DNA of 33,556 nucleotides from a virus (IMGVR_UViG_3300012948_000012:1-33556); one strand, 5' to 3'. Shown: positions 3,826-20,385, counted from the first letter of the stretch. Translations and numbers: made by a program. Notes: a model not told the origin generated them from the letters alone.

Positions 3826-3833
3826 GTCTCCCC

Positions 3834-4744: not shown

Positions 4745-5060
4745 ATATTTTACACATAATTAATAAAAAATTTTCATCATGTATGTGATACCTATGTTAA
4801 CCTTTACCTAACATCAAGGTAACATATACATGAATTTACATAAAATTCTATTTTTTATTTGTCTTTTAAGTTGTAAACATCATAAGCTAGGAAGAGAATG
4901 AAGCTTATGAAAGACCCCCGCGCAGTACGGGGGAGCATGATTGACTTTTGCCAAGTAATCAGCAAAGGAAGATCTATAAGATCGCAAAGTTTTTAGCTTG
5001 CGAAGATATAGATGTCATGGACTATATCTTCATGAAATATTTTAAGTCTACTTTTTTTTG
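4745..5060. promoter_or_regulatory. Divergent promoter region with inverted repeats
   Basis: Non-coding gap between leftward recombination and rightward replication genes; IR TATGTTAACCTT/AAGGTAACATA (4793-4826) and perfect 10-bp IR GAAGATATAG/CTATATCTTC (5002-5031). Confidence 0.55.
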
Positions 5061-5066
5061 AGGTCT

Positions 5067-5381
5067 ATGTCTAACTTTTTGTGTTGCAGTTTGTGTTATG
5101 AAAATCTTTGCTATAAGGATGCTTTCCGAGGTCTTGAAGCTGCTAAATTTTGGCAAACACTTTGTGACTATTACGTAAAATATCGTGGTCTATTGCGTAT
5201 CAGTGAAAGCATCGTTCCTTGGAGTGTTCCTTTACTGGAATTTTTAGAAAGACACAACTACATAGCTACGTGTGATAGCTATGAAGGTGTCATTTTAAGA
5301 GTAGAAGGGTATGCTGTAGAATCAGACAATATAGAAACATTTTGTAATGATAGGGATAACCATGTATTTTATCCCCATTAA
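5067..5381 (+). CDS. Hypothetical protein with N-terminal CxxC
   Basis: GAGG RBS then ATG 5067; track ORF. Confidence 0.65.
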   Translation: MSNFLCCSLCYENLCYKDAFRGLEAAKFWQTLCDYYVKYRGLLRISESIVPWSVPLLEFLERHNYIATCDSYEGVILRVEGYAVESDNIETFCNDRDNHVFYPH

Positions 5382-5386
5382 AACAC

Positions 5387-5415
5387 AATGGCCAGTCGGT
5401 AAAAAACTGGCCATT
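5387..5415 (+). terminator. Hairpin/inverted repeat after ORF 5067-5381
   Basis: AATGGCCAGT...ACTGGCCATT 10-bp IR; no clear U-tract. Confidence 0.4.
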
Positions 5416-5483
5416 AAACATTCAAGAGTTATGCAAGACAAATGATAGCAAATTCATCTATCTCACAATATCTCACAACACCA

Positions 5484-5575
5484 CATTGTACGGGATGCGT
5501 GATTTTAAAACAATGAGAAGCATAGAGAAATGCTTCCCGGTTTTCATTGTACGGGATGCGTGATTTTAAAACAAT
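5484..5575. repeat. Two exact 31-bp direct repeats upstream of the replication initiator
   Basis: CATTGTACGGGATGCGTGATTTTAAAACAAT at 5484-5514 and 5545-5575. Confidence 0.9.
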
Positions 5576-5596
5576 AAAAATATAGAGAAAAAGAAA

Positions 5597-6592
5597 ATGA
5601 TAGCAAATTCATCTCAAGCGACAGCAGAAGTCCTAGAAATAGGCAAACTTCATATCGAAGGGAATGTAATCCCTCATAATTGGTATCAAAATATAAAGGG
5701 GCCTACAGGGAAAACTGACTTAGAGGCAATAATAATCTTATCCGAAATCTTATATTGGTATCGACCCACATATATAAAAGATGAAAGCAGCGGCCAAGTA
5801 ATAGGAATAAAGAAAAAATTTAAAGCTGATGCTCTTCAACGTACAAAAAAATCTTTTGCAGAACAGTTTGGCTTAACCGAAAGAAAAGTTCAAGAAAGCT
5901 TGGCTTTGCTTGAAAAACTTGGATTGATAACTAGAGATTATCGAACCGTGCTCCATGGGGACGTTGTATGTTCTAACGTGTTGTTTATCAAGATTCATCC
6001 AGAAAGAATAAAGGAAGTAACATTCAAAAATGTCATAGCTATGGCAGAATTCTGCCATACCCCCCCCACAAATTCTACCATACCATTGGCGGAAATCGGG
6101 CATACGTATACAGATAATACTCCACAGATTACAACAGATACTAATACTCCTCCTATACCTCCTCATTCAGGACCACCCGATCCACCGGCTTCGCCGAAGC
6201 CAGCTAAAGCTGGCGGGATGGATTTGGAAGTTTCTAAGTCATTTTCTGAAGAAGTCAAGAAAGTTGGCCAAGAAATGGTTGCTATTCTTAAAACTGATAA
6301 ACCAACGTATAAAGTTCCTTCAAACTTGACGCAATGGTATCAGGCTATTGATCTTATGATTCGATCAGATCATCGACAGGCATCTTTGATTATTAAGGTT
6401 TTCGCATGGGCCGTCGCAGATGAATTCTGGAAAGACAAAATGTTTAAGCCTAATCCAGCTAAGTACTTAAGAACCATGTTCGATCAGCTTGAAACTAAGA
6501 TGAATGCCAAGCCTATGAAAAATCCAAATCGTGTTGATCGTAGGACCAAGGATGCTGATGGCAACCCAATTTATGTGAAGCCGAGGTTTTAA
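5597..6592 (+). CDS. Phage replication initiator (lambda O-like, winged-helix N-terminus, Pro-rich linker)
   Basis: GNVIPHNWY...ILSEILYWYRP...FAEQFGLTERKVQESLALLEKLGLITR; C-terminal DEFWK...PAKYLR..FDQL; followed by a DnaC-like gene. Confidence 0.8.
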   Translation: MIANSSQATAEVLEIGKLHIEGNVIPHNWYQNIKGPTGKTDLEAIIILSEILYWYRPTYIKDESSGQVIGIKKKFKADALQRTKKSFAEQFGLTERKVQESLALLEKLGLITRDYRTVLHGDVVCSNVLFIKIHPERIKEVTFKNVIAMAEFCHTPPTNSTIPLAEIGHTYTDNTPQITTDTNTPPIPPHSGPPDPPASPKPAKAGGMDLEVSKSFSEEVKKVGQEMVAILKTDKPTYKVPSNLTQWYQAIDLMIRSDHRQASLIIKVFAWAVADEFWKDKMFKPNPAKYLRTMFDQLETKMNAKPMKNPNRVDRRTKDADGNPIYVKPRF

Positions 6593-7101
6593 TGCTTAAG
6601 CCTTTGAACCAAAGCCAAGATGTAATTGATTGTTTGGAAGAATTTGCTAGTGATCCCAAAGAATTTATTATATTGTCAGGAACCAATGGTTCCGGTAAAA
6701 CATATGCTGCAATGGCTGTTTATGAAGTCGTAACTCCTTATGTTTTACCAGCATACGATTATGATATAGCTTATTTTTCAACTCAAGTTGATTTAAACAA
6801 TCGATGGAAGCAGATGATGAAAGATTATGGAGATACCCAGTTTTTATCTGATCAGATTGTAGGAGCTAAATTATTTATTCTTGATGATTTAGGAACTAGA
6901 ACGCCTTCTGATGCATTCATGGATTTTCTTTATGAGATTGCAGATAAGAGATATACACATCGAAAAACTAGAGGTACGATAATAACTACCAATTTGAATG
7001 CCTTCGATATGAGAGAGAAGTTTGGGGATGCATTTACCTCTCGTGTCAGTTATAACAAATGCTTTAGGTTGGACTATGAAGATAGGCGCATAATCGCATA
7101 G
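6592..7101 (+). CDS. DnaC/IstB-like AAA+ helicase loader
   Basis: Walker A GTNGSGKT, Walker B LFILDDLG, TIITTNL, SR, EDRR. Confidence 0.9.
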   Translation: MLKPLNQSQDVIDCLEEFASDPKEFIILSGTNGSGKTYAAMAVYEVVTPYVLPAYDYDIAYFSTQVDLNNRWKQMMKDYGDTQFLSDQIVGAKLFILDDLGTRTPSDAFMDFLYEIADKRYTHRKTRGTIITTNLNAFDMREKFGDAFTSRVSYNKCFRLDYEDRRIIA

Positions 7102-7207
7102 AAATGCGATATAACGAATTTTCTATGAAAAAATATCTAAAGGTGCGTATAAGAAAAATAATGCAATATAACGCAATTGTGTGCGTTTTTAACTAAAGGG
7201 GGATACC

Positions 7208-7603
7208 ATGAGAAACGAGCCAGGCAAATTTATAGAATACGCAGAAGTAGAAAAGTTATTAACCCAAAGCGCATATGGTGTAATGGATTTATACGACTTA
7301 GACTTGTTTCATACGGTGCACTATGTTCGTGATGCAATCAATCGAGGTCAACTTAAATCTTGTAAGATCAACAAGAAAGATATCACCATCACTAGAGAAG
7401 ATATCTTGTCTTATTGGAAAAAGTATAGAGCCACAGAGTTTGATCCAGCTGTATTACCAGTTGAAGTTAAGTTGAATTCTTCAGAAGTAACGTGGCTTAC
7501 TAATACAATTAAAAAGTTCAAAATTTCTCATAATGATTTATTCAGAGCTATGATTAATCATTTTAGAAGTTCGGATATGGTGAATTTAATACAATCAATC
7601 TAG
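7208..7603 (+). CDS. Putative DNA-binding protein (excisionase/HTH_17-like N-terminal part)
   Basis: YVRDAINRGQLKSCK...ITREDILSY resembles an excisionase-type winged HTH. Confidence 0.5.
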   Translation: MRNEPGKFIEYAEVEKLLTQSAYGVMDLYDLDLFHTVHYVRDAINRGQLKSCKINKKDITITREDILSYWKKYRATEFDPAVLPVEVKLNSSEVTWLTNTIKKFKISHNDLFRAMINHFRSSDMVNLIQSI

Positions 7604-7611
7604 GAGGATGT

Positions 7612-7935
7612 ATGATTGAAGTTATTAGTGTTAATCCTATTAACAAAGGCGACATGTTAGCGAGCGTGACAGTACGTATTGCTCCATGAAAATTAAAGAT
7701 TCATAAAGTCGTTGTCTTTCAAAAAGGTGAAAACCGTTGGGTTTCTTTGCCTAGAGAGAAATATGAAGACCGTGAAGGCCATGTGCACTTCAAAAACCTG
7801 TTAGAATTTGATGATTCTCAAGTCGAGAAACGTTTTCGGGATCAGATCATGGCGGCCGTGGATGCGTACATGGAAAAGAATCATGGTCTGAATCCTGAAG
7901 ATGTAATAAAACAAGATCAAGAATTTCCCTTTTAA
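7612..7935 (+). CDS. SpoVG-like nucleic-acid-binding protein with SSB-like acidic tail (TGA=Trp at 7687)
   Basis: GGAGG RBS; LASVTVRIAP-W-KLKIHKVVVFQKGENRWVSLP; ends DQEFPF. Confidence 0.7.
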
Positions 7936-7948
7936 TCCTTAGGTATTT

Positions 7949-8125
7949 ATGTTTTGAAGCTTATTATTTTTATTGTTTTTAGGCCTTCAGCTTAGTGGTT
8001 GTATAGCCTGAAGTTGGGTATGGGTATGTGCTCCTTTATGGGGTCCGGTGGTTGTTATAATTGCAGCCCTGGGATTAGCAGTTTTGTTTGCAGCCATCGT
8101 TGCTACGATACAAAAGAGGCCATAA
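7949..8125 (+). CDS. Small two-TM membrane protein (WSWxWVxAPLW family; TGA=Trp at 7955 and 8009)
   Basis: MF-W-SLLFLLFLGLQLSGCIA-W-SWVWVCAPLWGP...; motif common in phage membrane proteins. Confidence 0.8.
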
Positions 8126-8325
8126 TGGATCGTTATCAAGAACTGAAAGAGTATGTCAAAGATTATCTTGAACATATGGATGAACTTAACGAAAAAAAGA
8201 TAGCTTGCAATGAGAAAGAACTAGAGTTTCTAAGAAAAGAAAGCGTGTGTTTTAACCTGTTGCAAAAAAATTTTTTAAGGATGGAGGCTGAAGATGTTAT
8301 ACCCGAAGATCAACAGTCTCTATAA
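8125..8325 (+). CDS. Hypothetical coiled-coil protein
   Basis: TAATG coupling, GAGG RBS; MDRYQELKEYVKD... Confidence 0.6.
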   Translation: MDRYQELKEYVKDYLEHMDELNEKKIACNEKELEFLRKESVCFNLLQKNFLRMEAEDVIPEDQQSL

Positions 8326-8989
8326 GAGACACGGATGGTACTTTGATGAAAAAGACAAGAAGAATACTTCTTCTGAGCTACAAAAGAACAGACAGTCATT
8401 TATCATAGGGGACTATGCTTGTCCTGAGTTTGAATCTATTAATAGATGGCAAATTGATGAAAAGATTGATGGGACAAATATCCGTGTAATTTGAGAACCT
8501 TGGGCAGAAAATCCTGTTACGTTTGGTGGGAGGACACCTAATGCTCAAATTCCTACAGGGTTATTACTGCATCTTCAAAAGACTTTCACAAGAGCTCAGC
8601 TATTTAAGCATTTTCCCGTATGCCATAGGGTTGTATTTTTTGGAGAAGGTTATGGGCCTAAGATTCAAGCAGTAGGATCTAAATATCGAAACGATGTTTC
8701 TTTTATTCTCTTCGATGTTTGGATTGATGGATGGTGGCTAGAAAAAGACACAGTAAAGTCCATTGCTGATGATCTAGAAATAGAACATACTATTGGCGGA
8801 GATATCTTAAGTACTCAAGAAGTTGTTGACTTTGTTAAGTCTAAACCCATTAGCTACAGCTCTGTTGATCGCTCCTTAGTCATGGAAGGAGTGATCGCCC
8901 GATCTTATCCCCTTATGATGTTTAGACAGCGTGGAGCGCCTATAATGTTCAAACTGAAAGTCAAGGATTTTCCAGAATGCAACGTATAG
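8294..8989 (+). CDS. ATP-dependent RNA ligase, Rnl2-like, 231 aa (TGA=Trp at 8492)
   Basis: Nucleotidyltransferase motifs YPKI, EKIDGTN, FGEGYG, FILFDV, EGVIAR and KLK all in one frame once TGA is read through. Confidence 0.85.
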
Positions 8990-9435
8990 TCTTATCCGGT
9001 GATCCTGTTGCCCAAGCGAGAGCTAGGATATTTAGACGGGGCAATCGAGTTATGACTTTTGACCCTCAAGCAAGTTTAAAACGCGAGCTAAAGATACAAG
9101 CCAAGCTACAATTAAAGAATTGAGTGATGCCTAAGTATCCGAGGGTTTCTTTTAGATTCTACATGCCTATACCCAAAAGTATGAAGAAAGAAGAACGCAA
9201 GTTGGCTAATGATGGCTTTTTGAAACATGTCAAGAAGCCTGATGTGGATAACTTGATTAAGTTGTATCTAGATGTTCTTTCTGGTATCGCTTTTGAAGAT
9301 GATAATTGCGTCTCGTTAGGTTCAGCAATCAAGATCTATAGCCTTATGCCTAAAACTGTTATCACTATTTGTGAGCATGATAAGTTAATATCCATGAATG
9401 AAATATGGAGTGTCACTGAAGACACTCCATTTTAG
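8977..9435 (+). CDS. rusA: RusA-like Holliday junction resolvase (TGA=Trp at 9121)
   Basis: GDPVAQARAR N-terminus joined in frame to KPDVDNLIK...D...EDDNCV. Confidence 0.88.
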
Positions 9436-10114
9436 TCACTTTAGGATAATTATTATAGACCCTTCCTATTGCTGCATGGGTCCATAAGTCGGATGTTCTA
9501 GGTTTGATTCCGCGGCTATTCATCTCGCTTGCAATGTCACGTAATGACATGCGCTTGCGTTTACGCATATTATACATAATACGTAAAGCTTCAGCTTCGT
9601 AATCGTCTATCAATAATTGCTTATTAACGACTTTGAAGCCATACGGAACATGTCCCACCCGTTCACCCTTGGCTCGCTTGGCAGCTAGAGCTTTTTTGGT
9701 TCGTTGTCTAATACGATATCTTTCATATTGTGCAAAGCCTCGTATTAGTGTCGTCATCAGAGCGGCTACTCCTGGGTCCATCCCTGAATAATCTTCCATG
9801 ACGCTAATAAGCATACATCCTTTCTTTTCTATCTCATATTGAAGGATAGCAGCTTCCATGACGTCACGACTTAGGCGGTCATGGTTAGCAACTAAAAGAG
9901 TATCACCTTTTTGTAAAGCGTCTAATGCTTCATTAAGCTGATCTCTCTCTTCCATTCGTAAGCCAGAGCTGACTGCCTCATCTTTGTAGACAACGTAGTC
10001 AGCTTGACCTTTTTTTGTTAGATAATCGAGACAGGTTTGTAATTGGGCTTGTATACCTAGACCAGATTTCTTTTGTTCTTCTGTAGAAACGCGCAAATAG
10101 ATTATGTATCGCAT
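9413..10114 (-). CDS. Serine recombinase (resolvase domain plus recombinase domain); apparently ends at TGA
   Basis: YLRVST, DRLSR, FAQYER, GHVPYGF, IASEMNSRGI...W. Confidence 0.9.
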   Translation of the reverse strand: MRYIIYLRVSTEEQKKSGLGIQAQLQTCLDYLTKKGQADYVVYKDEAVSSGLRMEERDQLNEALDALQKGDTLLVANHDRLSRDVMEAAILQYEIEKKGCMLISVMEDYSGMDPGVAALMTTLIRGFAQYERYRIRQRTKKALAAKRAKGERVGHVPYGFKVVNKQLLIDDYEAEALRIMYNMRKRKRMSLRDIASEMNSRGIKPRTSDLWTHAAIGRVYNNYPKVTKMECLQ

Positions 10115-10115
10115 A

Positions 10116-10334
10116 TCAAGAGAAATGTATAGGACAATCCAATACAGTTTGTTGTCTTACGTCTACAGTAAATCCAACGGTCCTTAGGTTTTCTAAGTCT
10201 TTTTTTGAAAAATTCTTCTTTTTCATCAACATCGCCATGTCTACTCCTACCTTATTAACAGGTCGAAACAAGGGACGAGTTATGAATGGGAAATATTCTA
10301 CCTCAACGGTTGGGTAAGCAATCTTATGTTCCAT
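10116..10334 (-). CDS. Hypothetical protein; ends at TGA 1 nt before the recombinase ATG
   Basis: AAGGA RBS; track ORF. Confidence 0.65.
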   Translation of the reverse strand: MEHKIAYPTVEVEYFPFITRPLFRPVNKVGVDMAMLMKKKNFSKKDLENLRTVGFTVDVRQQTVLDCPIHFS

Positions 10335-10351
10335 ATTTTTCCTTTTTTTCT

Positions 10352-10585
10352 CTACTCAGGCATTAACTCCCTAGGCGAACATCCTAGGGCATGGGCTAAC
10401 GCTATTATATTCTCTAAAGCAATGTTACGTTCACCACGTTCGACAGAGCCAACATACGATACACTGAGACCAGCTTTCTCAGCGAGCAGTTCTTGAGAAA
10501 TATCGATAGCATATCTTTTTTTTCTGACTATAACTCCAAAAGCCTTTCGTACCGCAGTTTTTCTGCGATCATGCCAGCGAGCCAT
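10352..10585 (-). CDS. XRE-family HTH transcriptional regulator
   Basis: SQELLAEKAGLSVSYVGSVERGERNIALENIIALAHALG. Confidence 0.92.
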   Translation of the reverse strand: MARWHDRRKTAVRKAFGVIVRKKRYAIDISQELLAEKAGLSVSYVGSVERGERNIALENIIALAHALGCSPRELMPE

Positions 10586-10593
10586 CTCTCCCC

Positions 10594-10633
10594 CATCTAG
10601 GGCAACTAATATGAGAGATATCAGCCCTAGATG
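10594..10633. promoter_or_regulatory. Perfect 10-bp inverted repeat upstream of the XRE gene (operator or RNA hairpin)
   Basis: CATCTAGGGC-N20-GCCCTAGATG. Confidence 0.5.
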
Positions 10634-10654
10634 AAAGAGACTATGAACGCTATT

Positions 10655-10927
10655 TTAAGGTAAACGGCCGTGTATCTCTACGATCGTACCACATATATTA
10701 AGACCATGTTCTATAGCAAACAAATTTCCCGGAAGTTTTAATAAAAGCCCTTCATCATTTATGACCCAGTCCCGTCCTTGATGGTGATAGATATCAATGT
10801 AACCACCCACTTGTTCTTGTAAGAATTCCAATAAGCCATCTCTTGGTAACTCAACTGTTTTTTGACAAAATGTTGACATGTCTCGGTTATCATTAAGCCA
10901 TTCGGATCTATGTATCGTTGCTAACAT
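10655..10927 (-). CDS. DUF3846-like protein
   Basis: LEFLQEQVGGYID...VINDEGLLLKLPGN...ICGTIV. Confidence 0.75.
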   Translation of the reverse strand: MLATIHRSEWLNDNRDMSTFCQKTVELPRDGLLEFLQEQVGGYIDIYHHQGRDWVINDEGLLLKLPGNLFAIEHGLNICGTIVEIHGRLP

Positions 10928-11130
10928 GAGGCCCCCTGCAATGATTTTATTAACCTTGCATCTGGTCTCTTGATTATCTTTCCCCCAAGCTCAAAGCCAT
11001 AAGCTAAGGGCAAGCGTTGTTTCAACAAATGTATGATATCTTCTTGAGTTTGTATGTTAAAACCATCCATAACCCAAGATTCATGGACATGTACTTCTAT
11101 AGTCCATTTCACAAAGTCTTTTTTCTTCAT
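10921..11130 (-). CDS. Hypothetical protein
   Basis: GGAGGTG RBS before ATG 11130; KWTIEVHVHESWVMDGF. Confidence 0.7.
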   Translation of the reverse strand: MKKKDFVKWTIEVHVHESWVMDGFNIQTQEDIIHLLKQRLPLAYGFELGGKIIKRPDARLIKSLQGASC

Positions 11131-11226
11131 AAATTCACCTCCACTCCATGTTTTTGTTGAAGGGATACTATACACTTAACACAATATTTAGCATGCATTG
11201 TTTGATTGAAGTAGGTAGCATCCGAT

Positions 11227-11244
11227 GGGGCTATTGCTAGCCCC
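11227..11244 (-). terminator. GC-rich hairpin after the J-domain gene
   Basis: GGGGCTA-TTGC-TAGCCCC; no U-tract. Confidence 0.4.
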
Positions 11245-11250
11245 GTGTTG

Positions 11251-11733
11251 TTAATTTACTTGTGCATATTCTTGTTTTTGTATCTTTAATGACCCATGAC
11301 GGTCTCTTATTGCAAACATGTCATATTCTTGGCCTCGATAGTACCACCCCTTCTTGGCTTCACTACGCCAATACCAAGATAGCTTCTTAGGAGACCATAG
11401 AAAACCACAAGCTTTAAGCCTGTCTTTGTGTTGCTTAGTGTCGCCAGTTATCCATAACCAGCAACCACACAATTCTATGATCAATCCCTCGAGATGAATT
11501 ATCTTGTTTAGTTGACAACGTAGCGCTTCATCTTTAGCTAAGAGATCATTGATTTCAGTATGAGACTTACCAAGAGATTGATAACTCCCTTTAAGAATAG
11601 ATTCATATTGTGCATTGATAACTTTCATTTTTTCAAGACACCCCCCCAGATCGGGATGATGTACTTTTGCGAGAGATTTATAGCGTTCTTTAATCTCTTG
11701 TTCTGTTGTTAATCCCTCAAAGTATAGAGTCAT
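11251..11733 (-). CDS. DnaJ J-domain-containing phage protein
   Basis: EIKERYKSLAKVHHPDLGG...MKVINAQYE, then IELCGCWLWITG...WYWR domain; GGGAG RBS before ATG 11733. Confidence 0.85.
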   Translation of the reverse strand: MTLYFEGLTTEQEIKERYKSLAKVHHPDLGGCLEKMKVINAQYESILKGSYQSLGKSHTEINDLLAKDEALRCQLNKIIHLEGLIIELCGCWLWITGDTKQHKDRLKACGFLWSPKKLSWYWRSEAKKGWYYRGQEYDMFAIRDRHGSLKIQKQEYAQVN

Positions 11734-11938
11734 GATAGATACTCCCAGGAACTGCAGTAAGATATAATCGATAATCATACCCTTTCCCAGGAAATATCCA
11801 AGCAAAGTGTAACATCCCATCTATCATTAATGCAGGTAGCTCTATTGATCTTAGATAGTATTCTTCTTTCCGTTCATCACTAGGTATATGACCCTCTAAT
11901 ATCCATAAATCATCATATGCTTCTCTTATTGTTTTCAT
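11717..11938 (-). CDS. Hypothetical protein (first gene of the leftward operon; TGA end)
   Basis: Track ORF; short overlap with the J-domain gene start. Confidence 0.55.
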   Translation of the reverse strand: MKTIREAYDDLWILEGHIPSDERKEEYYLRSIELPALMIDGMLHFAWIFPGKGYDYRLYLTAVPGSIYHDSIL

Positions 11939-11939
11939 G

Positions 11940-12244
11940 CCTTATCTCTTATGTTTATTGTTTGTGTATCTTATGCACGTTAGCAATTAGTCTTTGTTAC
12001 GTTAATTGTGTATAAGATGCATGATACGATACATAACATATGATGTTTATGTCAATCATAAATGACGTTTGAAACGATATGTCATTAGTATCAATCTCTT
12101 ATGGTTTTTAGTGTGTCATGACTTTGACATAAATAATGGGAAAATGTTAGGATTCGGATATAATCAGTCTTGAACACGGGGTCCCATGGGGTTTCCCCAT
12201 GCATAGGACATGATATGCAATGTATCATAATTAGTATGAGATAA
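11940..12244. promoter_or_regulatory. Divergent control region between the leftward recombinase/repressor operon and the rightward late operon
   Basis: Non-coding; TTGACA (12124) with TGTTAGGAT/TATAAT downstream; IRs at 11965-12021, 12114-12129 and 12185-12201. Confidence 0.55.
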
Positions 12245-12655
12245 ATGGCTGGCTTCCCAAAAAAAGGTAATCGTAACGGAGAAAATGTTAGACAACCTCA
12301 ACCAGGTGTCAAAATACCCACTGATCAGATTATACAGGCCTTAATTAAGACTCGAGGCAATATCTCCAGGGCTGCTGATAAACTAGGTTGTAGTCGACAT
12401 GCTATCCACTTGAGATCTCAAGCGGAACCAGACATAAAACAGGTTCTACAATCATGTAGAGAGCGGTTTTTGGATGAATCAGAAGATGTCTTGCAAGAGA
12501 AAGTCCTTTCTGGTGATACCACAAGCCTGTTGTTTACCCTAAAGACTCTAGGACGCAAGCGTGGTTATGATATGGATAACAATATCATAGCAGAAAGCGT
12601 AACACGTGGTGCGTTAGATTGGATAATGAACAAGTCTAAGAACCCTGCTGAATAG
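12245..12655 (+). CDS. terS: Probable terminase small subunit (Fis-like HTH)
   Basis: GNISRAADKLGCSRHAI...LDESEDVL...GDTTSLLFTLKTLGRKRGY pattern of HTH-type TerS proteins. Confidence 0.65.
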   Translation: MAGFPKKGNRNGENVRQPQPGVKIPTDQIIQALIKTRGNISRAADKLGCSRHAIHLRSQAEPDIKQVLQSCRERFLDESEDVLQEKVLSGDTTSLLFTLKTLGRKRGYDMDNNIIAESVTRGALDWIMNKSKNPAE

Positions 12656-12907
12656 TCTACAAGCAATACTATCCCTCCCACAATATATCCTAAGCGTATA
12701 TAACATACATATATAGCGTACGCAACTCACGTGTTAGCGTACATATATACTAGGTTCACCCTTGGGACTCTACCCAAGATATGCATACCCCACCTCCTTA
12801 AGAAGAACCGGTTCTATTCATATATCTCTATCCATCCCCCCGAGGAAAAATTTGATGGTCTATGGATTAAATCTCTATCCTACTGTAGATTGTAGAAAAT
12901 TTTTTGT

Positions 12908-13078
12908 ATGGTGTTTATGGCGATGTTGCTATTGATAGATAATGAAGCTTATCCAGTTCCTAGATGTTCAAGATGTGGAGAATACATGTTACCAAGAGAG
13001 GGGGTATGGGTATGTATAGATTGTGACAAAACCTCCAAACCTATTGGAGAAATTGACAAAATGTCTAAATCCAGATAA
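12908..13078 (+). CDS. Small zinc-ribbon protein
   Basis: RCSRCGEYM...WVCIDCD. Confidence 0.6.
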   Translation: MVFMAMLLLIDNEAYPVPRCSRCGEYMLPREGVWVCIDCDKTSKPIGEIDKMSKSR

Positions 13079-13109
13079 TCTTGTAGAAAACTTTTTTCTT
13101 AGGTGATAT

Positions 13110-13253
13110 ATGGAAGAGATAGAAGAGATCATAAAACAACACATAGATATATTGTACATGCGGTTATATGGTTTATACGATGAGATAGAGATGTGGGAGG
13201 GTGTAATAGATGGAGTTAACATGGAAGTTGTGGGAAAACATGAAACCCAATAA
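13110..13253 (+). CDS. Small acidic hypothetical protein
   Basis: AGGTG RBS; MEEIEEIIKQHIDILYMRLY... Confidence 0.5.
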   Translation: MEEIEEIIKQHIDILYMRLYGLYDEIEMWEGVIDGVNMEVVGKHETQ

Positions 13254-13410
13254 ACCTGGGTATTATGCTACATGGGATCCGAATTATTATGAATACCTGA
13301 TGTGTGAATGAGATGGAGAGAATTTTATACCTTGCGAGACTGGTTGTGGATGTTATCCCGCATTTTATGTAGTGCCTGATAAGTGGATGGAGATACCACT
13401 TGCAGATTAA
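13210..13410 (+). CDS. DUF551-like protein (TGA=Trp at 13309)
   Basis: W...KPNKPGYY...CE-W-DGENF...KWMEIP. Confidence 0.6.
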
Positions 13411-13535
13411 CCTCGTGACCACATTCTGGTCTATCCATGCAGAGATACAACAGAAAAGAGATTAAGCGATTATCAGAGATAAAAAACCAGATCTCTGCTA
13501 TGATCTTGGCTAGATCCTTAGATCAGGGGTAAGAT

Positions 13536-13823
13536 ATGCAAGATTTAGCCATACAATTTTTAAAAGATATAAACATAGCCCAATTGCTCGCGATAGGGAT
13601 TATGTTTTGGTTTTTCTATAGTCGTTTGGATAAAAAAATAGAGAAATTAGAAAATCGAATGGATAAGCTAGAAAATAAAATATCTTCGTTAGAAATGCGA
13701 GTTGGAAATATAGAAACTCGGGTTGCTGTTATGGAAAGCCAGTTAAGAACTATTAATGAAAATGTATCTCATTTAATGTGGCATCATCAATTTATAAGAG
13801 ATAAAGATGCAGATGAGCAATGA
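13536..13823 (+). CDS. Single-TM plus coiled-coil protein; extends to 13895 if TGA is read
   Basis: Hydrophobic segment LLAIGIMFWFFY then heptads LDKKIEKLENRMDKLENKI. Confidence 0.8.
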   Translation: MQDLAIQFLKDINIAQLLAIGIMFWFFYSRLDKKIEKLENRMDKLENKISSLEMRVGNIETRVAVMESQLRTINENVSHLMWHHQFIRDKDADEQ

Positions 13824-13913
13824 TGTAATCCCACGGAAGTGACCCTAGAAGATATAGATAAGGCGCTTGAATATCTTATTAACTATGAAATCTAATGTCA
13901 TGAGAGATAAGGC

Positions 13914-14120
13914 ATGGATAAAATTGATATAATCTTATCGGTTGTAAGTGGTGGCTTCAGTTTGATGTTGGTCATGTGGCATTTTATAAATCGTAGAATA
14001 GAAAGACTATCAGACAAAGTAGATGACATTGACAAAAGACTATGCGGCATAGAAGGTTCTTTAGCAACTCAAGGACATTGTCTCTTTCATAATATAAAAG
14101 AAGATCGCAAAATAGAATGA
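13914..14120 (+). CDS. Single-TM plus coiled-coil protein (ATGA overlap with next gene)
   Basis: ILSVVSGGFSLMLVMW then IERLSDKVDDIDKRLCGIE. Confidence 0.75.
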   Translation: MDKIDIILSVVSGGFSLMLVMWHFINRRIERLSDKVDDIDKRLCGIEGSLATQGHCLFHNIKEDRKIE

Positions 14121-14239
14121 TCTTATCATTAGCCCTACTAGCCTTCATTCTATGGACTCGTTCAGAAGCGAGAGAAGAATATAGAAATTTAAGACTTAAG
14201 ATATTGAATCTTGAAGAGCAGATACGTAACAAAACATAA
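14117..14239 (+). CDS. Small TM plus coiled-coil protein
   Basis: MILSLALLAFILWTRSEAREEYRNLRLKILNLEEQIRNKT; W-x-R-(S/A)-E motif shared with the next gene. Confidence 0.6.
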   Translation: MILSLALLAFILWTRSEAREEYRNLRLKILNLEEQIRNKT

Positions 14240-14278
14240 GAAAACATGGATGTCTTTACATTATTGAGGTGAGTACAG

Positions 14279-14506
14279 ATGGACGCATTTACATTATTGA
14301 CGGCCCTAGTGACAATCCTAGGGGTATTCATCGCTAATGTTGGAATGATCATTCCTCTCTTTATATGGGTGCGAGCAGAAACAAGAGCAGATGCTAGACA
14401 TAATGACTCTAAATTAGATTCTACAAGAGAACTTGTAAGAGCTATACATGAAGAAATGAAAGACTTTCATAACCGGATTATTAAGATAGAATCTAGAGAA
14501 AAATAA
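14279..14506 (+). CDS. TM plus coiled-coil protein
   Basis: GAGGTG RBS; ...IPLFIWVRAETRADARH...IHEEMKDFHNRIIKIE. Confidence 0.8.
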   Translation: MDAFTLLTALVTILGVFIANVGMIIPLFIWVRAETRADARHNDSKLDSTRELVRAIHEEMKDFHNRIIKIESREK

Positions 14507-15138
14507 TGATTATAGACTGTATTGGATGTATGCATGGGGTTTATCCAAAACTAGATGGTGGTGATCTTCTTATCATCACTGGGGATATAACCCGTAGGGA
14601 TGATCCTAGAGAGTATATCCCATTCTTTCAGTGACTAAAGAAACAAGAATATATACACAAAGTATTCATCTCCGGCAATCACGATAACCAATCCATGTAT
14701 CAATTCGATTGGTTTGATGCAGAATATCTTCTCGACTCGCTTACAGAATGTCATCATCTGAAAATCTATGGTTCTCCATGAACTATGACGTTTCCTGGGA
14801 TAAATCCGCATTGTTGTGCCTGGACATGTGATAGACTAGATGATCTAAAAGCCAAATGGGATAAGATTCCTGAAGAGACAGATATTCTCGTCACTCATGG
14901 ACCCCCATATGGTTATCTTGATACTATTGGAGACTATGGAGCACATGTTGGTGATATAGCTCTCTCTAAATTCGTTGAGAGAATCAAACCACGCCTTCAT
15001 GTCTTCAGCCACATCCACGAACATGGCGGTAAGGTGATAAAGAATAACGGAACCATCTATGTGAACTGCTCAATCATGGATGAGTTCTATACACCAACAA
15101 ATAAACCCGTGAGAATAGAATGGAATGGTCAACAATAG
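14506..15138 (+). CDS. Calcineurin-like metallophosphoesterase, 210 aa (TGA=Trp at 14632 and 14779)
   Basis: GDLLIITGD, FQ-W-L, SGNHD, KIYGSP-W-T, THGPP, FSHIHE. Confidence 0.9.
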
Positions 15139-15252
15139 ATAAACACCCATAAGTGGCTGTCTCATAAGAACAAAGAAATAAAAACATATTCATTCAAATA
15201 TTCATTGACATGTCATTAATGATTCATATATGAAAGACATAAACATCATGGA

Positions 15253-15468
15253 ATGATTATGTCAATCTCTAGGGTAAAAATTAATAGATATGCAGAAGAG
15301 TTATTCGAAGTATCATATATGGATTCCATTGGTTCTATAGATGAAGAACGTGTAAAACTTGTGAGATTCTTAGACGATCTGACTGATTGCTTGACAAGAT
15401 TGAAGATTCAGAATATCAGTAACGAAATTGGCATATGCACCCTCCAGGTCGGTCATGCGCAAAACTAG
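15253..15468 (+). CDS. Hypothetical protein
   Basis: Track ORF; TTGACA at about 15205 upstream. Confidence 0.55.
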   Translation: MIMSISRVKINRYAEELFEVSYMDSIGSIDEERVKLVRFLDDLTDCLTRLKIQNISNEIGICTLQVGHAQN

Positions 15469-15571
15469 GGTGAAGAAACTAAGAAAGATGTTCAAGTTAC
15501 TGAGTGTGGGCAAAGAGAAAACCGTAAAGAATCATTGGAGGCGCTTCAAGCGTAGTATGAAGGTATGATAG
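15455..15571 (+). CDS. Small basic protein ending TGA-TAG
   Basis: MRKTRVKKLRKMFK...WRRFKRSMKV; tandem TGA TAG. Confidence 0.5.
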
Positions 15572-15666
15572 ATATTCATTTAGAGCCGCAGGCACTAGCA
15601 TTCTTATCAATAATGTTACTCGGTTCTTTTATTCTTTCTCAAGTTATTAAATTGGATATTTTTTAG
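15565..15666 (+). CDS. Small membrane protein
   Basis: ATGA overlap; MIDIHLEPQALAFLSIMLLGSFILSQVIKLDIF. Confidence 0.45.
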   Translation: MIDIHLEPQALAFLSIMLLGSFILSQVIKLDIF

Positions 15667-15674
15667 GAGACTTT

Positions 15675-15905
15675 ATGTATTTAATTTTAACACCAGCTCA
15701 AACACAAAATTATATAGAATATAATATGTCAAATGGTAAAACATCTATTAAAAATGATTATATAGGATCAATGCAACCTATATTTACTAGTGATGGTTAT
15801 GTGGCTAAGAATTACCTGAATAAACCTGGAAGTCTTGTTTATAGCTTAGAAAAACTAGAAAGACTGAGCGATGTACAAATTACCGTAACGGATGTGGTGC
15901 AGTAA
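15675..15905 (+). CDS. Hypothetical protein
   Basis: AGGAG RBS; track ORF. Confidence 0.65.
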   Translation: MYLILTPAQTQNYIEYNMSNGKTSIKNDYIGSMQPIFTSDGYVAKNYLNKPGSLVYSLEKLERLSDVQITVTDVVQ

Positions 15906-16180
15906 TGATGAAGGCTCATTGGTCATTCCCTGGATTACAATTTTATTCAACATCACCAACAAGGAAACAAAAAATGTTTACAGAAACTGAAATGGAATAT
16001 CTGACTAAGAATACAGAACAAGATCTTGAAGCCCTAAAGTATAAGATTGACCAACTAGTTGATCAGATGGCTCTCTGTGGCAAGCAAATTACTGAGTTAA
16101 AGATAACCCAAGCTAAGGTTATGTCAATTCAACAAGCTTTAAAAGATGAGCAAGAAAGTGCCAAAGAGGATGATGAATAA
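15905..16180 (+). CDS. Coiled-coil hypothetical protein (true start may be 15974)
   Basis: Track ORF; AAGGA before ATG 15974. Confidence 0.6.
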   Translation: MMKAHWSFPGLQFYSTSPTRKQKMFTETEMEYLTKNTEQDLEALKYKIDQLVDQMALCGKQITELKITQAKVMSIQQALKDEQESAKEDDE

Positions 16181-16356
16181 TGAAAATATCAAAAGAAACA
16201 ATCTTAAAAAGGAATAAATGGCTAAGGCAATGTAAATATAATTCTAGAACCATTAATTTTACATATGATCATGTATACTTAGACCCTAACCGGATTATTT
16301 ATAGATCTCTTTATGGTAAAGATTATTATCCAATTTATATTCCTTTTTTCTTTTAA
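16180..16356 (+). CDS. Hypothetical protein
   Basis: TAATG coupling; 58-aa open frame. Confidence 0.45.
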   Translation: MKISKETILKRNKWLRQCKYNSRTINFTYDHVYLDPNRIIYRSLYGKDYYPIYIPFFF

Positions 16357-16377
16357 TTATAGAATCATAGGATAATA

Positions 16378-16536
16378 ATGGAAAAAACATATAATTTAAC
16401 AGAAAAAGAAATTCACACTTTAGAAACTATCATATTTAGTCAAATAATGATTGCTACTCTAACAGGCAATCATGAAAGAGCAGGACCTGACGAAGTTCAT
16501 AAAGCAGTTATGGCTTACATAAATAAAAAATACTAA
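16378..16536 (+). CDS. Hypothetical protein
   Basis: AGGA RBS; MEKTYNLTEKEIHTLE... Confidence 0.5.
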   Translation: MEKTYNLTEKEIHTLETIIFSQIMIATLTGNHERAGPDEVHKAVMAYINKKY

Positions 16537-16613
16537 TGCAACAGTGGTAGATGGGACAGGTTCTAGTGTGCAATTCCGCTAGAGTCCGAGGGTTCGAATC
16601 CCTCATGTTGCAA
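16537..16613 (+). ncRNA. Degenerate tRNA-like element (identity unclear)
   Basis: Acceptor-like TGCAACA/TGTTGCA and perfect T-arm GAGGG-TTCGAAT-CCCTC, but poor D-arm and a 7-bp stem with 8-nt loop in place of the anticodon arm. Confidence 0.5.
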
Positions 16614-16648
16614 GGTCCGGTTTCCGGTTACGTCAGCAGGAACCGGTT

Positions 16649-16684
16649 GGGGTGATGTGTAAAAAGCATCAACCCCCTTTTTTT
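16649..16684 (+). terminator. Intrinsic terminator directly upstream of tRNA-Trp
   Basis: GGGGTGATG...CATCAACCCC hairpin followed by T7. Confidence 0.7.
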
Positions 16685-16758
16685 ATCGGCTAAGAACTCA
16701 AATGGTGCGAGTAGCGTCTCCAAAACGCTTGTAGGGGGTTCGATTCCCTCAGCCGGTG
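16685..16758 (+). tRNA. trnW: tRNA-Trp(CCA), atypical geometry, no encoded CCA end
   Basis: Acceptor ATCGGCT/AGCCGGT with A1-U72 and G73; D-stem ACTC/GAGT; anticodon loop CT-CCA-AA; T-arm GGGGG-TTCGATT-CCCTC. Confidence 0.8.
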
Positions 16759-16770
16759 TAGAGGTTTTAT

Positions 16771-17115
16771 ATGGTTATAATTATACATATCTTAGCATCA
16801 ATAATAATCCTTTTGATAGGATTGTTAATTTATAAATATTCACAACCAAATGTGGAGTATATCGTGGCTTATACAAGAGTTCAAGAAACAGAAGAAGACA
16901 ATGAATTTATAAGTGTAGAAGACAGACTACCTGATACAGATGATGAGGTTATGGTTATAGGCCAAAGATTTCAATATATGGGTACTAAGGTAGGTTTGTC
17001 TACAGCTGAATTCTCACCTCAAAGAGGTTGGGTATGGTATGGATTAAATGTATACGCTTGGAAACCCCTCACAAAGCAAACTAAAAAGCTTATTGAGAAA
17101 TATTCTAACACTTAG
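16771..17115 (+). CDS. N-terminal TM plus DUF551-like domain
   Basis: FISVEDRLP...EVMV...VYAWKPL. Confidence 0.7.
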   Translation: MVIIIHILASIIILLIGLLIYKYSQPNVEYIVAYTRVQETEEDNEFISVEDRLPDTDDEVMVIGQRFQYMGTKVGLSTAEFSPQRGWVWYGLNVYAWKPLTKQTKKLIEKYSNT

Positions 17116-17193
17116 AAGAAAGATAGCAGCCACCGAAGGCGATGGCAGTGAAGCTTAATATTAACAAAAACATAAACAGTAGTGTCATCATAC

Positions 17194-18372
17194 CTAATCC
17201 TTATAGGGATCTATTTCGTTTTTAGAGGCCATAGCAACGCCTAAAGGCTTTAAACGATGTACAACCTTGACTGTATCGCGATGAGCATTTAAAACGATTT
17301 CTATGCGTTTATAACAATGGGGCGATTCATCTACATCGCCACCTCGAAGTTCTACATTAAACTTTTGCAGCCAAGCTTGCATATCTTCCTTGCGGACTTC
17401 CCCAGGCTTAATGATCTGTCCAGTCTTTCTATGTATCTTCCCTTTTGCTTGAGAGCGTCCCATGATGCGGCCAGCCCCATGAATGGTTGAGTACATAGCA
17501 GCTTTATTTTCTTCTGATTCCACTCCCTCAAGGATGTAACTAAAGTCTCCCATTGAGCCACCAACGAAACTTTGTAAGCCAGGATTGTTAGGTGTTGCTC
17601 CCTTTCGGACAACCCACACCAGCTCGTCATCGTGAGATTCTTTCCAAGCAAAATTGTGATGGTTATGCACCTCTTGTAGGATTTCGGCCTTGAGGATTCT
17701 AGCCATGCGACTACAAACCCAATCACGTCCAGCGTAGGCGTAACGACCTGCGAGATCCATGCACTTAAGATATTGTTCACCCAGGTCTGAATTCTCGTGC
17801 AGCACGACAGGTTCAGCATGTATTCCATCTTTTCCCCCAGCTTGTTTTATGAAATGCGTCGCTATGGTATGTCCCAAACCACGGCTACCAAAATGGACAC
17901 CCACCCAAATATGATCAAAATCATCGACGAAAATATCAACGTAATGGTTGCCAGATCCGACGGTTCCCAGTTGGTTATAAGCTTTTGATTTGAGATCGCG
18001 CAGAATATCAATACTATCCCAAATAGGGTCATCAAAAATCGGATGATCAACTCTTTCATTGTTATTTCTCCCAACGCCAAAACTGATGTATTTCTGAACA
18101 TCATTCATTAAGCGATAAATATCTTGTCGAACATGGTCAGCATCGGCAGATACACGCACAGCTTTATTACCGCATCCTATATCGAAACCTACGCCATTCA
18201 CGCAGATATGATCTTTGTATGATACTACGGAGCCTATTGGAACACTATAACCTATGTGATGGTCAGCCATGAGAACACCCTTTTGGGCTTTATATTCCAT
18301 AGCCTTAGCCAGTTGATTAACTGATTCCATGTCTGGTTCTCCCCAAACAAGAATATCGCCTATAGGTTGCAT
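17194..18372 (-). CDS. rtcB: RtcB RNA-splicing/repair ligase
   Basis: MADHHIGY, VGFDIGCG, LGTVGSGNHY, HFGSRG, HNHHN, RKGATP, GSMG, HGAGR, DESPHCYK. Confidence 0.97.
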   Translation of the reverse strand: MQPIGDILVWGEPDMESVNQLAKAMEYKAQKGVLMADHHIGYSVPIGSVVSYKDHICVNGVGFDIGCGNKAVRVSADADHVRQDIYRLMNDVQKYISFGVGRNNNERVDHPIFDDPIWDSIDILRDLKSKAYNQLGTVGSGNHYVDIFVDDFDHIWVGVHFGSRGLGHTIATHFIKQAGGKDGIHAEPVVLHENSDLGEQYLKCMDLAGRYAYAGRDWVCSRMARILKAEILQEVHNHHNFAWKESHDDELVWVVRKGATPNNPGLQSFVGGSMGDFSYILEGVESEENKAAMYSTIHGAGRIMGRSQAKGKIHRKTGQIIKPGEVRKEDMQAWLQKFNVELRGGDVDESPHCYKRIEIVLNAHRDTVKVVHRLKPLGVAMASKNEIDPYKD

Positions 18373-18489: not shown

Positions 18490-18729
18490 ATGATACCAAT
18501 GCAACAAGATGAATATCTATTGAAGATGGTTATGAAGAATGGTCATGTCATTTCATTAATATGTGATGTTCTTACGTTATCAGAATTAGAATCCCATCCT
18601 AAGTATCTTAAGATGAGAGATACATCGAATGATGTTTTTGTCTCTATTGAAGACATTTTAGCATTTGAGATTATAAACAACAAAGTTGTAGAACAACAAA
18701 ATGAGACCATCCCATCCCCTGCTGCGTAA
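18490..18729 (+). CDS. Hypothetical protein
   Basis: AGGAG RBS; track ORF. Confidence 0.65.
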   Translation: MIPMQQDEYLLKMVMKNGHVISLICDVLTLSELESHPKYLKMRDTSNDVFVSIEDILAFEIINNKVVEQQNETIPSPAA

Positions 18730-18919
18730 GAACTGCGAAAACTGCGGTACATTCGATGACCTGGAGTATTATGAGCATGTCTTTAAAGGGATCACTTTAT
18801 GTGGAGACTGTGCGGATTTACCTATGTCAAAAGTATCTAAGTACGGTCAGCCTTGAGTCATTGTAGATGATGAATATTATCCTAGGGATATTAAGTCATG
18901 CAAGAATCTGAAGCACTAG
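18701..18919 (+). CDS. Small zinc-finger protein (TGA=Trp at 18854)
   Basis: KNCENCGT...LCGDCAD; read-through fills the gap up to TerL. Confidence 0.55.
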
Positions 18920-20385
18920 AATTTCTTAGTGATAAAATCTGAAGGCTATCTAACCTTTATTATATCAAGGATAAGAGCGGCAACAAGGTTCTCTTTAAGC
19001 CTAACTGGGCACAGATACAACTACTTAAGCCTCATTATCTTAATATAATTCTGAAAGCTAGACAACTTGGAGTGACTACGTTTCATGCTTTGTTATTCTT
19101 GGATACATGTCTATTCAACAGCAACGTCAACGCTGCTATCATTGCAGACAATAAGCCTAATGCTAAGGAGATCTTCATAGACAAAGTTAAGTTTGCCTAC
19201 GATAACTTACCTGAGGAAATAAAAGTGATGATCCCAGCAAGAAAAGATAATGTCAATGAAATGAGGTTTGAGAATGGGTCGGTCTTTCGAGTGGGTACAA
19301 GTCTTAGATCGGGAACATTACAGCTCTTGCACGTCACCGAATTCGCAAAGATCTGTGTGGAAAACCCAAGGAAAGCAAATGAAATTACATCAGGCGCTCT
19401 GAATACCTTACAATCAGGTCAATTCTGTTGCATTGAATCTACTGCAAGGGGTCGTGGTGGAGCATTCTATGAAATGTGCAAAAAGGCTATGGACCAACAG
19501 GATTCAGGTTCTCTCCTAAGTAAACTGGATTGAAAGTTCTGGTTCTTCCCTTGGTGGAAGGAACCTAGTTATTCTATAGATCCTGAACATATCGTGATAA
19601 CCAAAGAAGAGTCTGAATACTTTGAAAAGATAGAATCTGAATGTAACATGGTTCTCGCCGAGGGTCAGAAAGCTTGGTATGTAAAAAAATCAGAAACTCA
19701 AGGTGAATACATGATGCGTGAATACCCTAGTACACCTGAAGAGTCATTCATGAGTGCTAACGAGGGATTGTATTGGGGCCAGCAGATGGCTAGAGCTAGA
19801 ACAGAAAGGCGAATATGCCATGTTCCATATGATGAGCATGCAATGACTTATAGTAGCTGGGATATAGGTATCGGAGACAGTACAGCCATCTGGGTATTTC
19901 AGCTTGTTGGAAACGAGATTCACTTCTTGAATTATTATGAGAACTCGGATGAATCGCTTCCACATTATGTTAACTGAATCAAAAAGCTACCTTATACGTT
20001 TGAAAAACACTTCATGCCTCATGATGCTGCTTCTAGGGATAAAGCTACTGGTAGGTCATACGCAGATGTCGCTAGAAATCTTGGTTTGAAAATCGACATT
20101 GTCCCTATAGATCAGAATGAGATGTTTGGTATAGAGGCTGTCAGGAATGCTTTTCCTAGATTTTGGTTTGATCAATCTAAGTGTGATAAGGGTATTAAAG
20201 CCATTGATTCCTTCAAGAAAGAGTGGAATGAAAAGCTTGGGTGTTACAGAGAGAAATCTCTACACGATTGGGCTTCTCATGGAGCTAAGGCATTAATATA
20301 TGGAACTGAAGCTATACAACGAATGACCAAAGGTAAAGGTCTAACAGCTGAAGAATGGAAACATTTACGGAGAACAATGATTTAA
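18898..20385 (+). CDS. terL: Terminase large subunit, 495 aa (TGA=Trp at 18940, 19531, 19975)
   Basis: DKI-W-RLSNLY, ILKARQLGVTT, LHVTEFA, IESTA, WDIGIGDST, PHDA, HDWASH; three track ORFs lie in one frame. Confidence 0.95.

Follow-up and report, generated by a model that had tools for sequence, protein, structure and literature searches.

Gene layout and relatives

The window analyzed here is a single virus record of 33,556 bases (IMGVR_UViG_3300012948_000012:1-33556) that encodes P22-like portal, capsid, terminase large subunit (TerL) and ejection proteins, and in which TGA serves as a tryptophan (Trp) codon in some blocks of genes while other blocks are free of it. Complete relatives measure 39.6-41.6 kb, several with direct terminal repeats, and judged by their size about 7 kb is absent from the window. 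The window is present in two soil metagenome runs, whose contigs carry zero alternative letters across 7900-24900 (X1 is possibly the window's own source). Its main blocks are the following, where recoded genes are those that read TGA as Trp.

3028..4743, minus strand: RecT-like annealase, a hypothetical protein and a PD-(D/E)XK exonuclease; recoded, 5 TGA
5058..7603, plus strand: replication block with a hypothetical protein, RepO-like initiator, DnaC-like loader and helix-turn-helix (HTH) protein; TGA-free, 0/10
7612..9435, plus strand: SpoVG-like protein, small proteins, Rnl2-type RNA ligase (TGA at codon 67) and RusA (TGA at codon 49); recoded
9413..11938, minus strand: leftward operon with a small serine recombinase, a 72-residue hypothetical protein, XRE HTH, DUF3846, a hypothetical protein, a DnaJ-domain protein and a 73-residue hypothetical protein; 0 TGA, 14 TGG
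12245..12655, plus strand: likely terminase small subunit (TerS); phrog_4044 match in 6/9 family members, the window's copy being without a match
12908..17115, plus strand: mixed middle region, 4 TGA, 18 TGG; gene 13914-14120 ends at TGA
17194..18372, minus strand: RtcB RNA ligase; TGA-free
18490..33556, plus strand: packaging and virion genes (TerL, P22-like portal, scaffold, capsid, tail and ejection proteins); recoded

We collected 98 loci, some of them from one and the same contig, by a pattern search with TerL and capsid that may under-sample recoded genomes. Three of the 98 are recoded in core genes (L001, L014 and L156, the last being part of the complete genome G011). Identity to unrecoded sisters is 82-83% for TerL and 93-94% for capsid. 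In the portal tree, which like all trees here is a quick one with SH-aLRT support, the window and G011 share an ancestor (support 98), and cultured phages match the portal at 22-25% at most.

TGA is partitioned between gene blocks

We measured the partition as TGA over all Trp codons per block, omitting three tiny Trp-free genes. The initial annotation had described TGA-free genes in the leftward operon and among replication and RNA repair genes, and the counts match: 14 TGG and no internal TGA in the leftward operon, 0/10 in the replication block (RepO 0/5, DnaC-like 0/1), 0/7 in RtcB and 0/7 in DUF29 (0/4) together with gene 622-1005. Recombination gives 10/26, the mixed middle region 4/23 and the virion 21/72; the virion total of 21 TGA and 51 TGG takes in 18490..33556 plus genes 258-644 and 1051-1941, and none of the 20 complete genes of that block ends at TGA. 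Homologue alignments bear out the further claim that TerL, portal, scaffold, capsid and most tail and ejection genes need TGA as a sense codon, and extend it to genes not previously listed, namely RecT, the exonuclease, the SpoVG-like protein, RNA ligase, RusA and a phosphoesterase. Thirty of the 35 in-frame TGAs in the window have an aligned homologue, and 29 of these line up with a position where most sister phages have Trp, 1 being the exception; the remaining five have no homologue. The module-wise Fisher test that had been suggested, run two-sided, gives p=0.018 for leftward operon versus virion, and p=6e-5 when leftward, replication and RtcB are pooled against virion and recombination, groups that were picked after seeing the data. 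Because A-ending codons for K, Q and E are equally common in TGA-free and recoded genes (0.70 vs 0.68), base composition does not explain the partition.

For the complete relative G011, the modules were fixed beforehand from the window, with the middle region, the large ejection gene and three near-start genes not counted. Its TGA-free blocks hold 0/35 TGA (leftward 0/13, replication 0/16, RtcB 0/6) and its recoded blocks 42/88 (recombination 16/21, virion 26/67), a contrast with p=2e-8. Five terminal TGAs of G011 were taken as stops, and counting all of them as Trp would give 5/40; three lie in ATGA overlaps with the next gene, one lies at the recombinase end and matches homologues, and one is a putative stop. 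The partition is real and is repeated in G011.

The two classes of genes also differ in how their Trp codons change. Between the window and G011, TGA and TGG differ at 25/72 shared Trp sites in recoded genes, much as third positions of K, Q and E codons do (251/678), and TGA-free orthologues have TGG at 18/18 shared Trp sites. RtcB is TGA-free in four recoded phages (0/7, 0/6, 0/6 and 0/7; 0/26 overall) and in 80/80 loci. In the virion genes, TGA makes up 29-39% of Trp codons and neutral pairs are 68% A-ending. This free turnover, together with a share below that of neutral pairs, suggests that virion TGA is tolerated drift.

The boundary between the codes is not tied to strand. In the window and G011 alike, it cuts through a rightward run of genes (7603/7612), and the RecT-exonuclease operon is recoded though leftward; its exact place is soft because the last two TGA-free genes hold just 3 Trp. 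The split is probably one between early genes and middle or late genes.

Two side observations concern the TGA-free blocks. The replication block (window 5597-7101) has been swapped within the family, with a DnaC-like loader in the window and a fused primase-helicase in G005, G007, G011 and G015, and the swapped block is TGA-free in both the window and G011. The two RNA ligases follow opposite codes, the Rnl2-type enzyme (8294-8989) being UGA-gated and RtcB (17194-18372) TGA-free.

Probable early genes that end at TGA

9413..10114, minus strand: small serine recombinase, 233 residues; TGA end where recombinase meets RusA head-on
10116..10334, minus strand: 72-residue phage hypothetical protein; TGA end in 12/15 distinct homologues, unrecoded ones included, 8 of them in ATGA context
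11717..11938, minus strand: 73-residue hypothetical protein; TGA end; six homologues of 66-70 residues, without the read-through tail

As previously annotated, three leftward-operon genes end at TGA (9413, 10116 and 11717), and the TGA at 10116-10118 sits 1 nt ahead of the recombinase ATG, where read-through would give 133 residues instead of 72. For all three genes, homologues end no further downstream than the terminal TGA. The annotation had noted that conserved read-through tails would speak against its reading, and the tails proved unconserved: the recombinase tail is shared by 0/16 other aligned homologues, and G011's own tail differs. An Atlas search with gene 11717-11938 gave no usable match. 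The rightward gene 13914-14120, missed earlier, is also TGA-ended, as is its G005 homologue. G011 has four TGA ends in its leftward counterpart, and its initiator ends at a TGA in an ATGA overlap with the primase-helicase. Early genes are TGA-ended family-wide, with 18/50 in the outgroup, and virion-gene TGA stops are nearly absent in sisters (1/79 vs 52/418). Judging by homologues, the TGA stop of 10116..10334 is ancestral, and the terminal TGAs of the window's early genes are inherited stops.

UGA gates in sister phages without virion recoding

9121..9123, plus strand: RusA codon 49, TGA; column common with sisters having unrecoded virion genes
8294..8989, plus strand: RNA ligase, Rnl2-type; continuous frame in the window with one TGA (codon 67)

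In G005 and G007, about 105-108 aligned Trp codons are TGG and virion TGA is zero; the sole in-gene TGA lies in RusA, upstream of the conserved KPDVDNL motif. Across 20 aligned RusA genes, this column is TGA in 13/15 members of one clade (support 99) and TGG in 5/5 of the sister clade. Ten TGA-bearing RusA genes with 59-84% nucleotide identity keep the third base in 0/11 conserved K, Q and E columns; four of the ten lie on short contigs, where the recoding state is not known. Invariant among saturated synonymous sites, the RusA TGA is under selection. G001 is intermediate: its ligase, its RusA and the gene preceding TerL each contain TGA, and its virion genes contain none. Because the RusA TGA is present in G001, the basal genome of the quick portal tree, the RusA gate is likely older than recoding, with loss of recoding in the sisters a possible alternative.

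A second gate lies directly upstream of RusA. In seven genomes (G005, G007, G015, L193, L206, L212/L213 and L218), the RNA ligase stops at codon 27 and resumes in the +1 frame, at a shift site that reads AAG GAG TGT CTT TGA C; the loci with this cassette at codon 27 are L191-L194, L206, L212, L213 and L218. The 19-nt cassette, AAGAAGGAGTGTCTTTGAC, is invariant in the seven genomes, in which 16/21 upstream third positions vary. It matches the prfB motif in having a Shine-Dalgarno-like run, 3 nt, CTTT, TGA and C, in its early position and +1 continuation, and in being conserved beyond coding need. Outgroup ligases (L219, L220, L195) are intact and have no TGA, and the window's own ligase lacks the cassette, with no match to the motif anywhere in the window. 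The clade genomes with the atypical tRNA described below (the window, G011 and G001) have an in-frame ligase TGA and no cassette.

The prfB +1 frameshift motif is described in PMC5009743 and PMC3711429, and a motif of the same make-up is reported to shift at about 53% in B. subtilis with no phage present (PMC12421855). The phage cassette resembles the prfB autoregulatory frameshift, as described there, in its purine-rich Shine-Dalgarno-like run, 3 nt, CTTT, TGA and C, in that all later codons are read in the +1 frame, and in its location at codon 27, against codon 26 in E. coli prfB. Unlike prfB autoregulation, the phage cassette belongs to an RNA ligase gene, that of seven relatives and not the window's, and its function is putative.

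A candidate UGA decoder

16685..16758, plus strand: atypical tRNA-Trp(CCA); 4-nt connector before the D-stem, no spacer base before the anticodon stem
16538..16612, plus strand: degenerate tRNA-like element with an enlarged anticodon loop

No UCA tRNA was found in the window, which is without about 7 kb of the genome, or in G011, and no release factor or synthetase was identified among the phage genes. The tRNA-Trp(CCA) at 16685..16758 is a candidate near-cognate UGA reader. It is common to the window, G011 and G001, is missed by ARAGORN at default settings, and has stems that covary, with both sides changed in 11/21 pairs (three sequences, with the structure taken from the window's fold). The top anticodon-stem pair is unpaired in G011's tRNA-Trp and in a canonical-armed copy in recoded L278, and is paired in the window (A-U) and G001 (G-C). 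In E. coli, 4-bp anticodon stems are reported to raise UGA read-through (PMC13092985). Like the Hirsh G24A, A9C and 4-bp-stem variants in that report, the phage tRNA combines a CCA anticodon with changes at the hinge between D-arm and anticodon, and its activity is putative; unlike them, it is phage-encoded and in the window has 5 stem pairs, a longer connector and no spacer base. The word 'phage' is absent from the main text of that report.

A motif scan of viral contigs for this tRNA gave 5 matches, of which 2 are real (G001 and G011) and 3 fell by chance in an unrelated gene. At relaxed thresholds, ARAGORN called a 'tRNA-SeC (tca)' in G001 and L282; the G001 call has no Rfam match, neither is convincing by eye, and neither was counted. 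G005 and G007 keep both gates without a strong match to the tRNA model.

Other tRNA-like features adjoin the candidate. The degenerate element at 16538-16612 shares both ends with a long-variable-arm tRNA with anticodon TCT (L156:2169-2260), which lies just before the tRNA-Trp in G011. G001, a 40-kb phage, carries an array of at least 14 tRNAs (L002:4844-7426) with the atypical tRNA-Trp among them.

The leftward operon

The initial annotation had called the leftward operon a lysogeny module, a label that we find unsupported. Its recombinase has 233 residues (homologues 226-259), contains a Resolvase domain plus residues 3-51 of the 102 of the Recombinase domain, and falls below all NCBIfam cut-offs. 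Large serine integrases carry C-terminal zinc-ribbon and coiled-coil domains, for which a protein of 233 residues presumably has no room, and the recombinase does not qualify as a true integrase. Pattern searches of GTDB genomes, which can miss copies, were run with the capsid protein and with its alignment; they gave 27 and 107 matches, no relative among them, and revealed no integrated copy. In metagenomes, the contigs that carry close RusA relatives do not exceed 40.6 kb, and a pattern search that can likewise miss copies showed no host flanks on them. A repeat search gave nothing bearing on attachment. A scan of viral contigs for the recombinase found 55 loci, all distant (25-34%, with one 43% fragment), and was not used.

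The operon has other features of a region that acts on entry. Six relatives encode an ArdA antirestriction protein in the same operon, and in the window the operon lies directly beside the likely TerS gene. In headful packaging, the end beside TerS would enter the cell first. ArdA and the adjacency to TerS thus mark the leftward region as first-entering, and the operon is likely immediate-early, a lysogeny role being improbable. In G003, the recombinase has no match.

We also observed a 10-bp hairpin at 9405-9430, where RusA and the recombinase gene converge; it covers the ends of both genes and contains the recombinase TGA.

Host

Among the genes of G011 is one for ribosomal protein S20 (TIGR00029; L177:17949-18254, minus strand), which is TGA-free. 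Among its 15 matches, both organism-named ones are Chlamydiales, at 51-59%, which points to Chlamydiota hosts on the strength of one gene of a relative. DUF29 plasmid matches give no host pointer. The TGA stops, the prfB-type cassette and the Chlamydiales-like S20 of G011 point indirectly to a standard-code host; a 2026 preprint lists UGA-to-Trp reassignment in four phyla, with Chlamydiota not among them. If the host call holds, this is a large tailed-phage family of Chlamydiota.

A proposed mechanism for the partition and its alternatives

We favor a reading in which UGA termination weakens partway through infection, led by a drop in release factor 2 (RF2), in a host that likely uses the standard code; we put its probability at roughly 0.55. 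The TGA-free genes would be early genes, translated while RF2 is fully active. UGA termination would then drop, most simply via loss of RF2 activity, and a near-cognate tRNA-Trp(CCA), either the host's or the phage's atypical one, would read UGA. The gate in RusA would have come first and would time Holliday-junction resolution. Once UGA was readable late in infection, TGG-to-TGA changes could have spread through middle and late genes, largely by drift. We prefer RF2 loss because nothing else would open, in sisters without the tRNA-Trp, an in-frame TGA as well as a prfB-type +1 shift. A suppressor tRNA would open the RusA TGA yet should compete with the +1 shift. The cassette is absent from the three clade genomes in which the atypical tRNA is present, which fits such competition, though kinship confounds the comparison.

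This reading keeps part of the code switch first proposed for the window. UGA would indeed still terminate when the TGA-free genes are read and mean Trp later, and the tie to lysogeny and lysis lacks support. The suggested role of the switch, blocking premature late-gene expression, fits the virion genes poorly, where TGA and TGG turn over like a synonymous site; it survives as a selected gate in RusA and in the sisters' RNA ligase.

Several observations weigh against RF2 loss. No RF2 inhibitor was identified: gene 10116-10334 was considered and dropped, as it occurs outside the clade and belongs to no named family, and a noisy pan-genome screen yielded no candidate that we took. Timing is drawn from gene function and order only, the host from one gene of G011, and the window covers 33.6 kb of a roughly 40-kb genome. 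The family-wide occurrence of TGA-ended early genes implies that these stops were retained and did not evolve for a switch, and the G001 exonuclease ends at TGA. The sisters' shortage of virion TGA stops is weak evidence, since the sisters are close kin and several outgroup loci likewise have none. The anticodon stem of the window's tRNA has 5 pairs, and the same tRNA type occurs in L328 (8425-8498), a distant phage with no virion recoding evident. L208 and G008 lack the RusA Trp, and L208 has a TGA 11 columns on. As the cassette type shifts at about 53% without phage (PMC12421855), it may be a fixed attenuator.

That last point belongs to an alternative that we consider unlikely but not negligible, in which the phage tRNA acts alone. 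Here the atypical tRNA-Trp(CCA), once expressed, outcompetes unchanged RF2, and the sisters' RusA TGA and cassette are fixed attenuators whose basal leak keeps nuclease and ligase low. The occurrence of the tRNA in the window, G011 and G001 with covarying stems is as this would have it, as are the unpaired top anticodon-stem pair in G011 and L278, given the effect reported for 4-bp stems on UGA read-through in E. coli (PMC13092985), and a cassette that works without phage (PMC12421855). However, 2 TGAs in the capsid gene, 3 in portal and 8 in G011 TerL would demand very efficient near-cognate read-through against active RF2, the same tRNA type is found in unrecoded L328, and an RF2-sensitive attenuator adjoining a UGA-gated gene is left unexplained.

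It is improbable that the partition reflects a lysis-lysogeny switch, with the leftward operon keeping a prophage in the standard code and induction bringing in code 4. The recombinase and XRE genes are TGA-free in both the window and G011, the same is reported for the Garnet and Topaz prophages (bioRxiv 10.1101/2021.08.26.457843), and a plasmid-like prophage with a resolvase is possible. Yet the recombinase has 233 residues, the capsid searches of GTDB gave no match, and the metagenome contigs with close RusA relatives do not exceed 40.6 kb; direct terminal repeats occur in several complete relatives; and replication genes and RtcB are equally TGA-free. ArdA and the adjacency to TerS mark instead a first-entering region, and G003 lacks a recombinase match.

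Mosaicism, in which the TGA-free genes would be recent acquisitions from standard-code relatives with drift yet to come, we find hardly probable as a general account. G011 RtcB does group with that of standard-code G008 (support 96), and the window's recombinase resembles that of G011 no more than either resembles those of sisters. But the RtcB genes of the window and L001 group together (99) as their portals do, with 0/13 TGA over branches of 0.2 and 0.29. The DnaJ-like (61%) and DUF3846 (45%) proteins are common to the window and G011 and TGA-free in both; TGG stands at 18/18 shared Trp sites, and the invariant RusA TGA goes unexplained. Mosaicism thus appears partly true, in that G011 RtcB goes with G008 and yet the RtcB genes of the window and L001 seem co-inherited.

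A host that itself uses code 4 and lacks RF2, with the TGA-free blocks due to chance, is very improbable: recoded lineages could differ from their sisters in host, but TGA-ended genes with unconserved tails (and the G011 initiator TGA in an ATGA overlap) and the sisters' prfB-type cassette do not fit, chance is opposed by p=2e-8 in G011, virion TGA is 29-39% of Trp against the 80-90% given for code-4 genomes (Mgcod, bioRxiv 10.1101/2022.06.29.495998), and none of the four UGA-to-Trp phyla in the 2026 preprint is Chlamydiota.

Relation to known recoded phages

Phages with standard early and recoded late genes, and the idea of a link to lysogeny, are already known from Borges et al. and Mgcod. 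The family described here is like the code-4 phages known from standard-code hosts, such as the Agate, Jade and crAss-like clades (bioRxiv 10.1101/2021.08.26.457843) in using TGA as Trp in structural genes, in its standard replication genes and in having close standard-code relatives. It is unlike those phages, as described there, in its soil-type, P22-like character, in genomes of about 40 kb, in a host that is likely one of the Chlamydiota, in its recoded recombination genes, in early genes for which TGA is still a stop, and in that UCA tRNA, release factor and synthetase were not found. As in the Garnet and Topaz prophages, the recoded codon is missing from a recombinase gene that accompanies recoded structural genes; Garnet and Topaz are TAG-recoded and were seen integrated, whereas for this family no integrated copy was found and the recombinase is a small serine one only. 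Block-coded crAss-like phages (Mgcod, bioRxiv 10.1101/2022.06.29.495998) likewise have a standard early block and a recoded late block. Their code switch follows a strand switch; that of the window lies inside one rightward run (7603/7612), and its leftward RecT-exonuclease operon is recoded.

The new elements are the gates carried by sisters that are not recoded, a phage ligase with a prfB-type cassette, and the CCA tRNAs. A full-text literature search, with subscription journals thinly covered and supplements outside it, returned nothing on an RF2-sensing frameshift in a phage gene, on phage RF2 inhibition or on tailed Chlamydiota phages. In Borges et al., only 35% of code-4 phages had a TGA suppressor tRNA, and the mechanism in the cell is named as a final question (bioRxiv 10.1101/2021.08.26.457843); the open question addressed here is how recoded phages alter the code of a standard-code cell. 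The route proposed there runs from stop loss through a suppressor tRNA to in-frame stops, unlike the present family, in which sisters hold single UGA gates without virion recoding. The family forms a graded series: gates only; gates, tRNA and few TGAs; and genome-wide recoding.

We tentatively propose a more specific version of the RF2-loss reading, which we regard as somewhat likelier to fail than to hold. In it, a clade of tailed phages of environmental chlamydiae would shut down host RF2 as a developmental clock, and the drop would be read by a borrowed prfB frameshift in the RNA ligase and by a fixed UGA in RusA; genome-wide TGA=Trp recoding would be a by-product, with decoding by a CCA anticodon and no UCA suppressor. 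If true, the RF2 clock would be a second way for phages to become recoded, with three of its stages represented by extant phages. The evidence suggests that most late-gene TGAs are drift and not a selected block. Three short elements can be tested separately: the RusA UGA, the ligase cassette and the tRNA.

Other features of the window and its relatives

At 5440-5614, direct repeats of 20 and 36 nt show a duplication that takes in the 5' end of the initiator gene together with the sequence upstream of it; the origin may lie here. Gene 13536-13895 encodes a membrane or coiled-coil protein with a weak holin match (E 1.4e-4), whose codon 96 is a TGA that could be either a stop (13536-13823) or Trp; no endolysin was recognised in the window. 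A promoter scan was at chance level (51 vs 54.7). A motif of about 27 nt is common to 12029-12065, upstream of the leftward operon, and 15224-15267, upstream of gene 15253, and is a possible regulator site. Finally, a signal-peptide protein that by eye resembles an outer-membrane beta-barrel (L278:2288-2848) adjoins tRNAs of a recoded phage and is possibly host-derived.

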